A stretch of DNA of 64,000 bases. Source: a phage. The stretch is taken from NCBI GenBank assembly GCA_030980935.1, contig GCA_030980935.1_3059.1; one strand, given 5' to 3'. The notes under the pieces were generated by a model that saw nothing but the letters and a program-made list of their open reading frames with translations, had not been told where the DNA came from and did not search any database. Positions 34,507 through 40,660 of the stretch are shown here, in pieces. Every line of letters begins with the position of its first letter. Within the stretch, counting starts at the first letter, position 1. Made by a program: the position numbers and the translations under genes.

Positions 34507-34707
34507 ATGGTACAAAAATTAATGGCACTTGTTAATGCCATAAAAGGTAATAAAAAACGTATAGCTTTTACTATTTCTGCTATGGTAGGAATTTTACTCT
34601 GGAACTTTATTCTATCACCTATTGCAATTGCACATGGTATTAATATTCCAGTGGTTACTCTTGATACATTTGTAGATTTAGCATTTGCTTTAGTTGGGTT
34701 GATTTAA
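34507..34707 (+). CDS. Small hydrophobic peptide (66 aa), plus strand
   Basis: Strong SD AAAGGAGG 4 nt before ATG; Ala/Gly/Val/Ile/Leu-rich, 1-2 predicted TM segments; only plus-strand ORF candidate in the minus-strand block. Confidence 0.4.
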   Translation: MVQKLMALVNAIKGNKKRIAFTISAMVGILLWNFILSPIAIAHGINIPVVTLDTFVDLAFALVGLI

Positions 34708-35732
34708 ATCTTGGCATATTTAGATAGCCGCATTTTAGCCATCAACCCCTGTGCAATATTATTTTTCATATATTCCATAATTTGTTCAGGGGTTGCACCT
34801 TCCTTTCTAATCATATCATTAACATCTTTTGATTTCCAGGGAGATTTATCCCAAAACATAACCCTTTCTCCTGCATCAACTAATTTAGTCATTCGCTTAA
34901 TAGTGTCAGGATGACGAGGTTCATTATCTAAAACCCACACACGTCTATCTTTAAATGGAACAACTTCTAGGTCTAATTGACCACCCGTAATAGCTATACC
35001 ATTTTCAATAAAAAGTGAATCTATAGGTCCTTCTAGAACATATACATCACCATCTTTAACTCGTTCGACTCCATAGATTTTTGTTGCTTCAGGATAAGCT
35101 TTGATGGTGATATATTTTTGGGGAGCATCTTTCTTTAATGCACGTCCTTGAAAAGACTCAGCTTTTCCATTAGCATTATAAATTGGAATAACAAGACGAG
35201 GCTCAGGTATTTCCTTTTTATATGTTCCTGGTGCTATGCTATTAACTAATTTAGGCCATTCGGTTGTAAACCAAAGATATTTCCATTTATCCTTTGGAAT
35301 ACAGCGAGCTTTTACATATTTTATAATTGGATGGTCTTCCGCCAATTTATCTAATCTAATGCATGACGGAAGAGATTTAATTATTTTCTTCTCAGGTTGT
35401 TTAGGAAGTTCTTTAGGTTTTTCTACTGGACGACTTTTACCTTTTTCTTTTCTTATTTCAAAGATATACTCACGATATAAATCGGGTTCAAACTCCTTTA
35501 AATATATTCCGATTGGTGCATGATAGTTACAGTTATAACAATGAATATTTCCTTCATTATTATCACCATAATACCATCCACGAGCTTTATTCTGGTCGGT
35601 TTTTGAATCTCCACAAACTGGACATCTAAACCGCAATTTAAAAGTTGAACTATTATTTACTTGTGTGAATTTAGGTAGATGAGCTAATGCACGGTATGCA
35701 AACTCATTATCAATCCAAGGTATTGATGACAT
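34704..35732 (-). CDS. 61: DNA primase gp61
   Basis: 342 aa as T4 gp61; N-terminal zinc ribbon CPVCGDS...CYNCNYH. Confidence 0.9.
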   Translation of the reverse strand: MSSIPWIDNEFAYRALAHLPKFTQVNNSSTFKLRFRCPVCGDSKTDQNKARGWYYGDNNEGNIHCYNCNYHAPIGIYLKEFEPDLYREYIFEIRKEKGKSRPVEKPKELPKQPEKKIIKSLPSCIRLDKLAEDHPIIKYVKARCIPKDKWKYLWFTTEWPKLVNSIAPGTYKKEIPEPRLVIPIYNANGKAESFQGRALKKDAPQKYITIKAYPEATKIYGVERVKDGDVYVLEGPIDSLFIENGIAITGGQLDLEVVPFKDRRVWVLDNEPRHPDTIKRMTKLVDAGERVMFWDKSPWKSKDVNDMIRKEGATPEQIMEYMKNNIAQGLMAKMRLSKYAKI

Positions 35733-35734
35733 TT

Positions 35735-35899
35735 TTACTCTTCTTTTTCTTTAGATTCCTCTTTCTTCTTTTTAGGAATCTGTTCAGGACCTTTATTTAC
35801 TACAGCACCTGACGTTGTTCCAGTAGAGATATTTTCAGGATTACCACCTGAATCTCCAGCGACCATATCTTCTTTAATAAATTCTTTATATGTTTTCAT
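35735..35899 (-). CDS. Small hypothetical protein (54 aa, 61.1-like)
   Basis: MKTYKEFIKEDMVAGDSGG...KKKKEESKEKEE; below cutoff; start lies inside a 47-bp direct repeat. Confidence 0.45.
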   Translation of the reverse strand: MKTYKEFIKEDMVAGDSGGNPENISTGTTSGAVVNKGPEQIPKKKKEESKEKEE

Positions 35900-35943
35900 A
35901 TTAACCTCTATTCATAAAAGCATTAAAAATTTGGTCATCAATA
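35897..35943. repeat. 47-bp direct repeat, copy A
   Basis: catattaacctctattcataaaagcattaaaaatttggtcatcaatag; 3 mismatches to copy B. Confidence 0.8.
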
Positions 35944-36257
35944 GATGGCGCAGTAATATTTTCTGCATCATTTAGCAAATCATTAATTTCATCAGATAGC
36001 ATAACACATGTACCTTTATTTCCTGTAATTGTTACTGCACAATTACGAACGTTTTCTTTATCAAATTTTAGGTTAATATTTTCGTAGTGAAAATCCTTTA
36101 ATGCCGAATATATCTTTAAAATGAAATTGTCTTTTACTACAATAAACCCAACCTCACTATTAAAACGCGGTTCATGGAAACTGTAATAAACCTTTTCATC
36201 TATAAAATCGTATGAAATTTTTTCCATTTTTAAATATGAAAATTCAGAACTATACAT
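35901..36257 (-). CDS. Hypothetical protein, truncated paralogue of the next gene
   Basis: 118 aa; shares VKDN core and C-terminus SIDDQIFNAFMNRG with downstream 196-aa ORF; flanked by 47-bp direct repeats. Confidence 0.55.
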   Translation of the reverse strand: MYSSEFSYLKMEKISYDFIDEKVYYSFHEPRFNSEVGFIVVKDNFILKIYSALKDFHYENINLKFDKENVRNCAVTITGNKGTCVMLSDEINDLLNDAENITAPSIDDQIFNAFMNRG

Positions 36258-36301
36258 ATTAACCTTTATTCATAAAAGCATTAAAAATTTGATCGTCAAT
36301 A
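36255..36301. repeat. 47-bp direct repeat, copy B
   Basis: catattaacctttattcataaaagcattaaaaatttgatcgtcaatag; 358 bp from copy A. Confidence 0.8.
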
Positions 36302-36849
36302 GAAACTTTTACAATTTTGTGATCGATACCAAAATACACAGAAGCAATATTATTAATATTATTTTCAGTGAAATCTAAATCAACATCAATATCTTTTTGA
36401 CTAACGCTCAAAGGATAATTAATACGAATAATTCGATTATCTTTAACAAAGATTCCACCGACATACTCTGTGCTGCGTTTAAAGTTTACACGTTTCCTAA
36501 ATGAAAAATATTCAGGTTCTTTATGGGCTCGACTCATAGGGCTTAAAGTATATTCCGAATATGAAATATCAAATCCTACACCTTCAATATGAGCCAAAGT
36601 GTCATGATTAAACCAATTATAATCGTATGCCAAATCCATTAAATTGTAATATGTGAAAGGCACCGGATTAACATCATATGTTGTACCTTTAAAATCTGCC
36701 CAGGCAACGATTTCGTTATCTTTAACAATTACAAAAATTGTGCCAATAAGATATCCACGGTTATTTTCATCAGGCGTTATATTATAACATTGTGCATCAG
36801 GAAATTTACCGTATTTAAACGGTGGATTTTTGTGCATATAATAAATCAT
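36259..36849 (-). CDS. Hypothetical protein (61.2-like) with internal repeat
   Basis: 196 aa; motif I(F/V)V(I)VKDN occurs twice; C-terminus SIDDQIFNAFMNKG. Confidence 0.55.
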   Translation of the reverse strand: MIYYMHKNPPFKYGKFPDAQCYNITPDENNRGYLIGTIFVIVKDNEIVAWADFKGTTYDVNPVPFTYYNLMDLAYDYNWFNHDTLAHIEGVGFDISYSEYTLSPMSRAHKEPEYFSFRKRVNFKRSTEYVGGIFVKDNRIIRINYPLSVSQKDIDVDLDFTENNINNIASVYFGIDHKIVKVSIDDQIFNAFMNKG

Positions 36850-36850
36850 A

Positions 36851-37144
36851 TTATTCGCCTGTGATTTCGGTTACGATATTTTTGTTATTAAAGTTTTTAT
36901 CGCAGTACAGAACATAATTATACTGCATTACACCACCAGACTTAAGTTGTTTTTGCACTTCAGCTTTCATTTCAGGACGATCGCGCTCAACGATATTCAT
37001 AATATCCGCTTCAATTTGAGTTTCAACTTCAGTCTGATCTGCAGTCATAGACCATTCACACAAATCTTTATCATATCCTGCCATAGCAGGCTGAGCAGCA
37101 CAAGAAGCCAAAGTAAAAATTGTAGCAAAAATAAATTTTTTCAT
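36851..37144 (-). CDS. Secreted small protein (61.3-like)
   Basis: 97 aa; signal peptide MKKFIFATIFTLASCAAQPAMA. Confidence 0.55.
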   Translation of the reverse strand: MKKFIFATIFTLASCAAQPAMAGYDKDLCEWSMTADQTEVETQIEADIMNIVERDRPEMKAEVQKQLKSGGVMQYNYVLYCDKNFNNKNIVTEITGE

Positions 37145-37204
37145 GATAATCTCCTCAGTAGTTTATGTTTATATAGTATCTCAATTTCCAACAAAAGTAA
37201 ACAG

Positions 37205-37462
37205 CTATTTTAAAACTTCTGCGTAATCACATGTTACAAACTGTTTCTCTAGCTTAACGATTTTACGAAAATACCTTTTATACTGACGAATCTGCCTCTT
37301 CGTAGGACGTACAGCAAACTTAATAAATTCCACTCGACCAAATGGAGGACTTTCTTCTGCTGGAATATCTAACACCAATTCCCACGTATCTGCAATAAGT
37401 GCTTTGAATTGAGTATTTTTCCTGACGTTATACGGAGTAGGTTTAAATAAAACAATATGCAT
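37205..37462 (-). CDS. Hypothetical protein at gene 61.4 position (possibly TifA-like)
   Basis: Track ORF trimmed to MHIVLFKPTPY (85 aa) with SD GAGGA; directly downstream of dmd. Confidence 0.5.
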   Translation of the reverse strand: MHIVLFKPTPYNVRKNTQFKALIADTWELVLDIPAEESPPFGRVEFIKFAVRPTKRQIRQYKRYFRKIVKLEKQFVTCDYAEVLK

Positions 37463-37463
37463 A

Positions 37464-37646
37464 TTATCCTCGGCAATCCACTTCGCACACTTTCTTGTCA
37501 TCAATGAAAGCTTCAACTAATGCTTTATTAACTTCAGCATATTGAGTAGTAGCCCATTGAACGTCATCTTTCATCATTGTGATTTCTTTAGTAAACATGC
37601 TTTCATTCTTAAACCACCCCATAAAAACTACCTTTACCAATTCCAT
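37464..37646 (-). CDS. dmd: Dmd antitoxin (inhibitor of RnlA/LsoA)
   Basis: 60 aa; sequence recognised as T4 Dmd (MELVKVVFMGWFKNESMFTKEI...). Confidence 0.9.
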   Translation of the reverse strand: MELVKVVFMGWFKNESMFTKEITMMKDDVQWATTQYAEVNKALVEAFIDDKKVCEVDCRG

Positions 37647-37649
37647 AAC

Positions 37650-37704
37650 AATCTCCTCATTTAACCAACAAGACTACTATACCATAGTCTTGTCAGCTTG
37701 TAAA
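37650..37704 (-). promoter_or_regulatory. Early promoter upstream of dmd
   Basis: Minus strand GTTTAC...TATAGT. Confidence 0.45.
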
Positions 37705-39132
37705 CTAAAATTTTAATTCATTTGCCAAAGCATCTAACTGTGCTCGAGTGGATTCATTTCTTTGATAGCGATTCTGTTCAGCCTGAATCTGTTGTGAACC
37801 TGCTACTTCACTCACTTCAGTTGGAGTAGAATCTTGTTCAATTTCTACCCATTTCTGATTTCCCTTTTGAACACCCATCAAAAACTTATTCCACTTATTC
37901 TTATCGCCATATCGTGATTTGATTTGCTTAATGAGTTGTTGTTCAGCAGCTGCTAGCTCCTCGGTTTCAATGACCGCAAGCATAAAATCAGCTGTTGCTG
38001 GAAGACCAGCAGATTCTGCGATATCACTCATGTTAACATCGGAAGAGTCCCAAGCTTGTTTACCAACCTGTGCTGCAGTCCAAAGAACAGTTTCGGTTTC
38101 AACAGCAAGAGCACGCAATTCCTCTGCAATAGCTTTAACAGTTGTGTAACTATTTTCTGAGTAAACTCTGATGCGGCAAGATTTACAAATACCTAGATAG
38201 TCGACAATAATGATTGTTGGAACAAAATTCTTTTTGAGCTTCAATTCATTCAAGAGAGACCTGAATGTGTTAGCATCTGCCCCACCAGTAGGGTACTGTT
38301 TAACAATTAAACGACCGAGAGTAGATTTCTCACGCCATTTTTCCATTTTTCCTTTATACTCAGCGTAAGAAATATGCCCATCATCAATGTCATCAAGAGA
38401 AACATCGAGCATATTAGCGTCAATACGTTTAGCACAGACTTCTTCTGCCATTTCCATGGAGATATAAAGAACGTTATGTCCAAGCTGTAAATAATCTGCT
38501 GCTAATGAACACAATCCTAATGATTTACCAACGTTAACGCCAGCCATTAAAACGTTCAGTGTTCCAGTTTCAGCTCCGCCTTTAGTAATTTTGTTTAGAA
38601 TTCTGAGTTTAAATGGAACCTTACGAGCTTTATTCATATAAGATAGCCAACGTGCTTCGTAGTCATCCATCCAATCATGACCAACGTAACTATCAAATGA
38701 AATTGATAATGCTTGGCGCATGATGTCAGGAATAGCACCAACATCCGGCATTTTCTTATTTCGTTTTTCCGGAGGAAGCTCAGCATTAGTTTGAATTTCG
38801 ATTATTTTAGACGTAGCATTAAACATCGCCCTTTGCTGAACATATTTTTCTGTTTCTTTTATTAACCAACTGTGGTCTTCCGGAGAATCAGCTAGTTTTG
38901 AAATAAGTGTTTTTACACCAGAATATTCTGTTTCCGTAAATGAACTATTTTCTAATGCAACATTTAACGCATTAATAGATGGAACGCTATGATACTCATT
39001 GACATGAGATTTAATTAATTTGAATGTATTTTTAGCTGGACCACTTTCAAAATATTCTGAATCCATATATGGCCAAACTTTTGAAAAATAAGCTTGATCA
39101 AATATGAGATGAGAAAGAATAATTTCTACCAC
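37705..39132 (-). CDS. 41: Replicative DNA helicase gp41 (DnaB-like)
   Basis: 475 aa as T4 gp41; Walker A GVNVGKS. Confidence 0.9.
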   Translation of the reverse strand: MVEIILSHLIFDQAYFSKVWPYMDSEYFESGPAKNTFKLIKSHVNEYHSVPSINALNVALENSSFTETEYSGVKTLISKLADSPEDHSWLIKETEKYVQQRAMFNATSKIIEIQTNAELPPEKRNKKMPDVGAIPDIMRQALSISFDSYVGHDWMDDYEARWLSYMNKARKVPFKLRILNKITKGGAETGTLNVLMAGVNVGKSLGLCSLAADYLQLGHNVLYISMEMAEEVCAKRIDANMLDVSLDDIDDGHISYAEYKGKMEKWREKSTLGRLIVKQYPTGGADANTFRSLLNELKLKKNFVPTIIIVDYLGICKSCRIRVYSENSYTTVKAIAEELRALAVETETVLWTAAQVGKQAWDSSDVNMSDIAESAGLPATADFMLAVIETEELAAAEQQLIKQIKSRYGDKNKWNKFLMGVQKGNQKWVEIEQDSTPTEVSEVAGSQQIQAEQNRYQRNESTRAQLDALANELKF

Positions 39133-39141
39133 ACTTACTCC

Positions 39142-39504
39142 TTAAAAGAATTTAAACTTTTTCTTTGACCTTTTATTAAATGCATCTTGTAGTTGCATTG
39201 TAATACATTTTTCTACATGAGGAGCTAACTCAGCTTTTCTTTCTTGGTCAAGAACAGCAAAGTCCATTACGACTTTTCCATTAACCCAATCTAATTTTGT
39301 CACATACACAATGTGTGTAGAACCATCTTCTAGTTTAATGACAATCTCCTGGATAACATTTTCCATGGCAGATTTAATTATCTTAAGAGACTCATTAAAA
39401 AGACGTTCTTTTCTTTCTTCTTCCCCCTCCGAAGAGGGGGATTCATCGATAATTTCTAGATCTAAATCTAAATCATCTTTATTCATTAAATTCTTCCATA
39501 TCAC
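39142..39504 (-). CDS. 40: gp40-like head assembly protein
   Basis: 120 aa, position between 41 and uvsX; internal CCCCUC-UUCG-GAGGGG hairpin. Confidence 0.55.
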   Translation of the reverse strand: MIWKNLMNKDDLDLDLEIIDESPSSEGEEERKERLFNESLKIIKSAMENVIQEIVIKLEDGSTHIVYVTKLDWVNGKVVMDFAVLDQERKAELAPHVEKCITMQLQDAFNKRSKKKFKFF

Positions 39505-40660
39505 TTAACTGCTCGAGGTCAGTTTCTAAATCAGCAGCTGATTTACTTTTACTTTCTGGAGATTTAAATTTTTCAACCTTTGAGTTAATCAATTCATCAA
39601 CTTCAGCTTCAACAATTTCATTACTATCAATAGCACCTAACTGATAAGCACGTTTAATAGCATCTCGGAATGGTTGATGCTTAAATAAAGGACCCCAGAA
39701 TGTAGTGCAGTTGGTATCTTTTGCACGCCAAGATTTTTCTTCGCGAATCATCTCGCCGGTTTCTTCATCAAGAAATTCACGAGCATACCAACCATTTTTA
39801 GGTTTTACCACGAATCCTAATTCTAGAGCCATATCTAACAATCCAGAATAAGGATCGATACCGCCGTCAAATTTAACATCAATAAAGAATTTACTTTTTT
39901 CTTTAACGGTACGAGATTTTTCTACATTTAGAACAAATTGATACCCTTGAAGATCAGAACCATCTTTAATTTGACGTTTACCGATAATGAATACAGTATC
40001 AGCCGAATACATTACGCCTGTACCACCTGTCATCACGGTTTTACTAAACATTTCAATTGTTTCAATTGTATGGTTAACCGCAACACATGGAATATTTTTA
40101 ATGCTAAAATAAGGAGTAACAATACGGAATAATGACTTCAGTGATTTAGCACGAGTCATATCTGCCACAGATTTTTCATTCAAGGCGTCTTCCGTTTCTT
40201 TCTTAGAAGCCATATTACCGATTGAGTCGATGAATACAATAACTTTTTCACCGCGCTCAATAGCTTCAAGCTGATTCACCATATCAATTTTCAGCTGTTC
40301 AACTGACTGGATTGGCGTATGAATTACTCGTTCCGGGTCAACTCCCATGGATCGCAAATAAGCTGGAGTAATACCAAATTCGCTATCATAGAATAGACAA
40401 ACCGCGTCAGGATATTTGTTCAAATATGCCGCAACCATAGTCAAAGACATATTTGATTTAAAGTGTTTAGAAGGCCCTGCGAAAATAGTTAAACCAGACT
40501 GCATGCCGCCATCAATCGCACCAGAAATAGCAATATTAAGCATTGGGATTTTTGTACGGATTACATCCTTTTCATTAAAGAATTTAGATGTAGTCAGTTC
40601 AGCAGTCATTTTAGAAGTGGAAGCTTTAATCAAACGGGATTTTAAATCTGCAATAGACAT
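39479..40660 (-). CDS. uvsX: Recombinase UvsX (RecA-like)
   Basis: 393 aa; RecA fold motifs, Walker A GPSKHFKS. Confidence 0.9.
   Translation of the reverse strand: MSIADLKSRLIKASTSKMTAELTTSKFFNEKDVIRTKIPMLNIAISGAIDGGMQSGLTIFAGPSKHFKSNMSLTMVAAYLNKYPDAVCLFYDSEFGITPAYLRSMGVDPERVIHTPIQSVEQLKIDMVNQLEAIERGEKVIVFIDSIGNMASKKETEDALNEKSVADMTRAKSLKSLFRIVTPYFSIKNIPCVAVNHTIETIEMFSKTVMTGGTGVMYSADTVFIIGKRQIKDGSDLQGYQFVLNVEKSRTVKEKSKFFIDVKFDGGIDPYSGLLDMALELGFVVKPKNGWYAREFLDEETGEMIREEKSWRAKDTNCTTFWGPLFKHQPFRDAIKRAYQLGAIDSNEIVEAEVDELINSKVEKFKSPESKSKSAADLETDLEQLSDMEEFNE

Follow-up and report, generated by a model that had tools for sequence, protein, structure and literature searches.

The interval at positions 37205-37646 of the window (the whole 64,000-nt stretch of phage DNA that was analyzed) lies in a segment of a T4-like (Tequatrovirus) genome, in which the neighboring genes all run on the minus strand and follow the T4 order. 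The genes and features discussed below are the following:

39479-40660, minus strand: uvsX
39142-39504, minus strand: gene 40, as given in the open reading frame (ORF) listing, with a GTG start
37705-39132, minus strand: gene 41
37676-37704, minus strand: early (sigma-70) promoter of T4 type for dmd and tifA, from a consensus scan (10 of 12 matches, plus TG)
37663-37698, minus strand: stem-loop in the spacer between gene 41 and dmd, overlapping the -10 element, from RNA folding
37653-37658, minus strand: Shine-Dalgarno sequence of dmd, GAGGAG, 6 nt before the ATG, read from the sequence
37464-37646, minus strand: dmd (gene 61.5), 60 aa, ATG start, from Pfam, PHROG and PDB matches and alignment
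37467-37471, minus strand: Shine-Dalgarno sequence of tifA, GAGGA, 5 nt before the ATG and within the last dmd codons, read from the sequence
37205-37462, minus strand: tifA (gene 61.4), 85 aa, ATG start, from Pfam and PHROG matches and alignment
37145-37204, minus strand: spacer between tifA and sp, identical to T4
36851-37144, minus strand: sp (spackle), 97 aa (Pfam T4_Spackle, E 5.8e-45)
36259-36849, minus strand: adfA (gene 61.2), 196 aa (Pfam PF23813 AdfA, E 1.3e-121, 404 bits)
35901-36257, minus strand: 118-aa ORF resembling gene 61.2 (PF23813, E 1.1e-7; PHROG 4122)
35735-35899, minus strand: gene 61.1
34704-35732, minus strand: gene 61

Going by the 345-nt gene 40 of T4, RB51 and ESh18, gene 40 would end at 39486 instead. 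The interval, as delimited in a preliminary description of this DNA, runs exactly from the stop codon of gene 61.4 to the start codon of dmd, and its flanking genes, 41 and sp, are the same as in T4. In the same line, dmd is found directly upstream of tifA in all five relatives retrieved from IMG/VR. A 951-bp query spanning the dmd-tifA region returned DNA matches in 601 phage records, led by Shigella phage ESh18 (99.9%), Escherichia phage teqdroes (99.6%) and RB51 (99.1%), and 661 bp of the region, both intergenic spacers included, showed 98% DNA identity to T4. Together with the T4 identity of the two proteins and their Pfam scores above cut-off, these 601 matches exclude that either ORF is a chance ORF. 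Plus-strand ORFs of 40-45 aa within the interval were rejected, being without support and antisense to conserved genes. NCBIfam returned no model for the four proteins searched, Dmd and TifA included.

The upstream gene encodes an acidic protein of 60 aa, which the preliminary description had recognized as Dmd. Profile and structure searches bore this out, with matches to Pfam PF17587 (E 9.3e-46; full length, residues 1-60 of 60; 154.4 bits, cut-off 27), to PHROG 2102 (E 1e-38) and to 'Antitoxin Dmd' in the LsoA-Dmd crystal structure (PDB 5hy3_B, E 6.8e-37, 59 of 60 residues identical). Alignment with T4 Dmd (NP_049653) and the RB51 protein gave 59/60 identities to T4, with K45E as the only change. 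Length, site after gene 41, promoter, ribosome-binding site and protein family are therefore all those of T4 Dmd, and the single substitution is the one difference. Relatives of Dmd were detected in 801 phage records. T4 Dmd (gp61.5) was reportedly established as the phage antitoxin of RnlA/LsoA by Otsuka and Yonesaki in 2012, and its structure in complex with LsoA is said to have been solved by Wan et al. in 2016. Direct binding of Dmd to RnlA/LsoA has been described (PMC8266594).

The K45E substitution (codon at 37512-37514, minus strand) reverses the charge at a lysine that the Dmd proteins of T4 and RB69 have in common. It represents a minority allele, the exact E45 form being present in 13 of the 478 phage records with at least 90% identity, among them ESh18, teqskov, slur07, PhiZZ6, G4507, AV122 and JLBYU24. 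For two of these carriers, teqskov and JLBYU24, the isolation host was E. coli K-12 MG1655. This strain carries rnlAB and restricts T4 lacking dmd, so the E45 protein probably still neutralizes RnlA.

The downstream gene starts 1 nt after dmd and encodes a basic protein (pI 9.9) of 85 aa. The preliminary description had placed it at the T4 61.4 position and given 61.4 as TifA, an inhibitor of ToxIN; both statements were correct, since the protein is identical to T4 gp61.4 at 83 of 85 positions (98%; changes C61Y and I83V) and 61.4 has been renamed tifA, for 'ToxN inhibitory factor A' (Srikant, Guegler and Laub, eLife 2022; PMC9391042). Identity to RB51 gp61.4 is complete (85/85). RB69 TifA is 57% identical, with the core FAVRPTKRQIRQ invariant among the window, T4 and RB69, and matches to Pfam PF23945/DUF7279 (E 3.7e-20, 72 bits, cut-off 24.5) and PHROG 2375 (E 2.4e-37) complement the alignments.

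The ORF listing extends this frame to 103 aa, reaching an internal TTG at 37516, and a longer product overlapping the end of dmd by 53 nt could in principle be the real one. We consider this hardly credible: the TTG has no Shine-Dalgarno sequence, GAGGA lies 5 nt before the ATG at 37462, and the start is annotated at this ATG in T4, RB51 and ESh18. Moreover, the alignment of the RB69 homolog begins at the ATG, and deleting the start ATG in T4 abolished function (PMC9391042). Trimming the frame to the methionine with a good Shine-Dalgarno sequence, as the preliminary description had done, was thus justified.

Both genes carry more nucleotide than residue changes relative to T4: the 14 nt that differ in tifA amount to two replacements and 10 synonymous sense codons, and the 3 nt that differ in dmd to one replacement. 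As nucleotide changes outnumber residue changes in each case, the comparison indicates purifying selection on both Dmd and TifA.

Published work has mapped the functional anatomy of TifA. The protein contacts RNA with a basic helix near its C terminus, for which P53-T54 forms the cap, and it also binds ToxN, holding the toxin in a ribonucleoprotein that contains chiefly 16S rRNA; the variants K55A/R56A/R59A and P53A/T54A lose both RNA binding and ToxN neutralization, whereas inhibition becomes stronger with F41S or F41H (Guegler et al., NAR 2023; PMC10853763). In our alignment, the window protein and those of T4 and RB69 all carry P53, T54, K55, R56 and R59. The window protein thereby shares with T4 TifA its 85-aa length, the P53-T54 cap, the basic residues K55/R56/R59, the C-terminal extension and the co-operonic location 1 nt downstream of dmd, as well as F41, the weaker residue of the T4 type at the ToxN interface. 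It differs from T4 TifA by C61Y and I83V, which together constitute the RB51 allele. With RB69 TifA, in turn, it has in common the core FAVRPTKRQIRQ.KR.FRK and a gene located downstream of dmd, but the RB69 protein, a stronger ToxN inhibitor, carries His41 and lacks the 15-residue C-terminal extension. The window protein is thus one of the T4 type, with weaker inhibition predicted. Because it carries Phe41, we predict the window TifA to be a moderate ToxN inhibitor of T4-like potency. A survey of residue 41 across populations was ruled out, as the IMG/VR scan, with patterns drawn from the N terminus, yielded only five loci.

Neither of the two TifA substitutions falls on a mapped residue. C61Y falls in the segment of the proposed basic helix, where Cys, Tyr and Glu all occur at this position among active homologs, Glu being the residue of the active RB69 TifA. 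I83V destroys a GAAAU ToxN cleavage motif at the 3' end of T4 tifA. V83 without GAAAU is the state of all four full-length IMG/VR loci, and T4 was unaffected when the site was ablated (PMC9391042); we therefore rejected the loss of the motif as an adaptive trait. A single-sequence AlphaFold2 model of TifA reached a mean pLDDT of 42, with values of only 56-66 for a helix placed at 55-71, directly after P53-T54, and so gives at most a weak hint of that helix. We found no solved structure of TifA and none of a ToxN-TifA-RNA complex.

The signals around the two genes are those of the T4 operon. The early promoter, located just past the stop codon of gene 41, consists of a -35 element TTTACA, a 17-nt spacer and a TG-extended -10 element TATAGT. 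It is identical to T4, and the whole spacer between gene 41 and dmd differs from T4 at one base. The 1-nt gap between the genes and both Shine-Dalgarno sites are likewise conserved. A terminator scan of 36800-37800 detected none between or after dmd and tifA, and no separate strong promoter was found between the two genes. The promoter, the minimal gap, the embedded Shine-Dalgarno sequence and the terminator result fit a single early bicistronic dmd-tifA transcript, as published for T4, in which an early promoter upstream of dmd drives both genes (PMC9391042). The spacer between tifA and sp holds a second early-promoter-like element (GTTTAC at 37197-37202) and the sp ribosome-binding site, but no terminator-like site; a promoter downstream of tifA has been mentioned for T4 as well (PMC9391042).

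An exact 10-bp repeat, TGAGGAGATT, occurs at 37650-37659 and 37148-37157 (minus strand), 502 bp apart. The two copies coincide with the ribosome-binding sites of dmd and sp and bracket the dmd-tifA unit. T4 escapes toxIN through segmental amplification of the two-gene locus of dmd and 61.4, and microhomologies of about 10 bp flank these amplifications (PMC9391042); by analogy, we infer that the repeat may serve amplification in the window phage. According to a 2026 paper, T4 requires the homing endonuclease SegB to amplify tifA.

The stem-loop in the spacer between gene 41 and dmd is conserved in T4 and folds with -21.2 kcal/mol over 81 nt (z -4.8; 0 of 200 shuffled sequences were as stable). 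Lacking a trailing U-run, it is no canonical terminator. Only RNA reading through from gene 41 could adopt the structure, which may act as a 3' stabilizer of gene 41 transcripts.

Taken together, we read the interval as the early operon of dmd and tifA in a T4-like phage, whose products would counter RnlA/LsoA and ToxN, with a probability of roughly 0.93. In this reading, gene identity, operon anatomy and retention of the mapped functional residues were observed directly, and the activities are extrapolated from experiments with T4 and RB69. In published experiments, tifA proved both necessary and sufficient, its protein and not its RNA was the active agent, and the T2, T6 and RB69 homologs worked as well (PMC9391042).

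We envisage the operon to work as follows. The sigma-70 promoter just downstream of gene 41 would yield one transcript, and from it two small proteins, within minutes of infection. Phage shutoff of host transcription would let the labile host antitoxins (the RnlB/LsoB protein and toxI RNA) decay, and the host endoribonucleases so freed would otherwise destroy phage mRNA. On RnlA/LsoA, Dmd would settle in the groove that separates the HEPN domain from TBP2/NRD (the second N-terminal domain), adjacent to the catalytic Arg/Glu residues, and so stand in for the lost antitoxin (PMC8266594). TifA, in turn, would sequester ToxN on abundant RNA, for the most part 16S rRNA, and in this ribonucleoprotein complex ToxN would no longer act as a multiple-turnover RNase; according to the authors, how RNase activity is blocked inside the TifA-ToxN complex is still unexplained (PMC10853763). 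Against toxIN at chromosomal level, the TifA of the window would be expected to suffice; toxIN on a plasmid would be too much for it unless the locus were amplified.

One alternative holds that the 85-aa protein has a different main role in infection, as a general early protein that binds RNA or associates with ribosomes, and that ToxN inhibition is a side effect. TifA does bind RNA, ssDNA and dsDNA independently of ToxN and co-purifies with 16S rRNA, distant DUF7279 homologs neutralize no tested ToxN (PMC10853763), and the wild-type TifA of T4 lacks the strength to defeat toxIN carried on a plasmid (PMC9391042). Disrupting tifA in T4, however, reduced the efficiency of plating about 100-fold on a host with chromosomal toxIN, but left it at wild-type level on the catalytic-mutant control toxIN(K55A) (PMC9391042). 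Inhibition is, moreover, limited to related ToxN proteins, with ToxN escape mutations mapping to the predicted interface (PMC10853763), and tifA neighbors two other anti-TA genes. We therefore regard a mere side effect as very unlikely.

A further alternative accepts both genes as orthologs of dmd and tifA but supposes that the alleles at hand, Dmd K45E and TifA Y61/V83, have shifted or lost their toxin specificity. TifA homologs do differ in specificity, some neutralizing no tested ToxN (PMC10853763), and single substitutions such as F41S in TifA or R164H in AdfA can alter potency or target; Dmd K45E, in addition, is a charge reversal and a minority allele. Against this, T2 and T6 TifA, which are more than 96% identical to T4 TifA, behave like it (PMC10853763), all mapped functional residues of TifA are unchanged, position 61 is tolerant and V83 is the common state, and phages with the K45E allele were isolated on MG1655. 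A shift or loss of specificity in these two proteins thus appears quite improbable, and we retain the reading of a dmd-tifA operon of the T4 kind.

The preliminary description had suggested that the interval may be a two-gene anti-toxin island. This proved correct and is published knowledge, without new inference: the region of dmd, tifA and adfA/61.2 has been proposed as a possible 'anti-TA island' (PMC9391042). The interval, a copy of the T4 operon with minor allelic differences, is accordingly an already known, routine Tequatrovirus locus. As the operon, its mechanism and the island idea were all published in 2022-2023, the locus carries little weight as a discovery, and anti-defense annotation tools already call dmd and tifA in new Tequatrovirus genomes. 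A 2026 genome note, for instance, named TifA and Dmd as anti-TA genes of a new Tequatrovirus by means of an anti-defense finder.

The practical value lies in annotation, since the gene at 37205-37462 can be named tifA with confidence. A tblastn search revealed TifA relatives in 681 phage records, 501 of them at 90% identity or more and 178 below 60%, extending to Mosigvirus, Dhakavirus and Enterobacter and Pectobacterium phages; in 21 phage records, identity was at least 99%. Like the Dmd allele with its 13 records, this TifA allele is thus in circulation among viable isolates. When 40 phage records were sampled across the 681 matches, all 40 bore a label of the 'hypothetical protein' type or no annotation, and never a functional name. 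The Pfam family of TifA is still named DUF7279, despite the naming of tifA in 2022. A name collision should be minded when annotating: an enterococcal phage protein also called TifA (type IV restriction inhibiting factor A; PMC11322646) is likewise a small anti-defense protein but, going by the title of that report, targets type IV restriction enzymes and not ToxN. By analogy with T4, the Phe41 allele would predict restriction of the phage by toxIN at plasmid level, not at chromosomal level, which may be relevant to therapy or host-range engineering.

Beyond the operon, the order 41 - dmd - tifA - sp - adfA - 61.1 - 61 matches the anti-TA island of T4, with sp, which is no anti-TA gene, sitting between tifA and adfA. 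The island of the window differs from that of T4 in two respects, namely an altered adfA and an extra AdfA-like paralog of 118 aa, the latter as in RB51 and ESh18. The adfA gene has undergone a 42-bp in-frame deletion (14 aa, VICGYELPFEEQ.K), with a junction near 36312 between GTAA microhomologies. The deleted stretch is present in T4, RB51, RB69 and the otherwise nearly identical ESh18. Among 487 phage records with an AdfA homolog, the highest identity to the window AdfA was 93.3%, and the deletion was absent from the best 15 of the 487, all of which span the full 630 nt. In addition, residue 167 of AdfA (36349-36351, minus strand), at the His/Arg specificity position, is Asn in the window but His, the DarT1-neutralizing residue, in T4, RB51 and ESh18; in RB69, the corresponding residue is Arg164. 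The substitution R164H lets RB69 AdfA bind DarT1 (PMC11257639), and Asn167 represents neither described state at this DarT1-binding residue. Judged from its sequence, the window AdfA could be an inactivated or re-tuned anti-DarT factor.

A broader idea is that Dmd K45E, TifA Y61/V83 and the deletion and Asn in AdfA jointly re-tune which host toxin homologs are neutralized. We consider this unlikely; if true, the island would be a snapshot of ongoing host-range adaptation, going beyond a plain copy of T4.

The 118-aa ORF is a paralog of the C-terminal half of AdfA. It aligns with positions 113-211 of the PF23813 profile and ends in SIDDQIFNAFMNRG, as AdfA does. The ORF is absent from T4 and occurs in RB51, where it is annotated as 'similar to gp61.2', and in ESh18, marking it as a candidate for an extra anti-toxin gene in a variable slot of the island.
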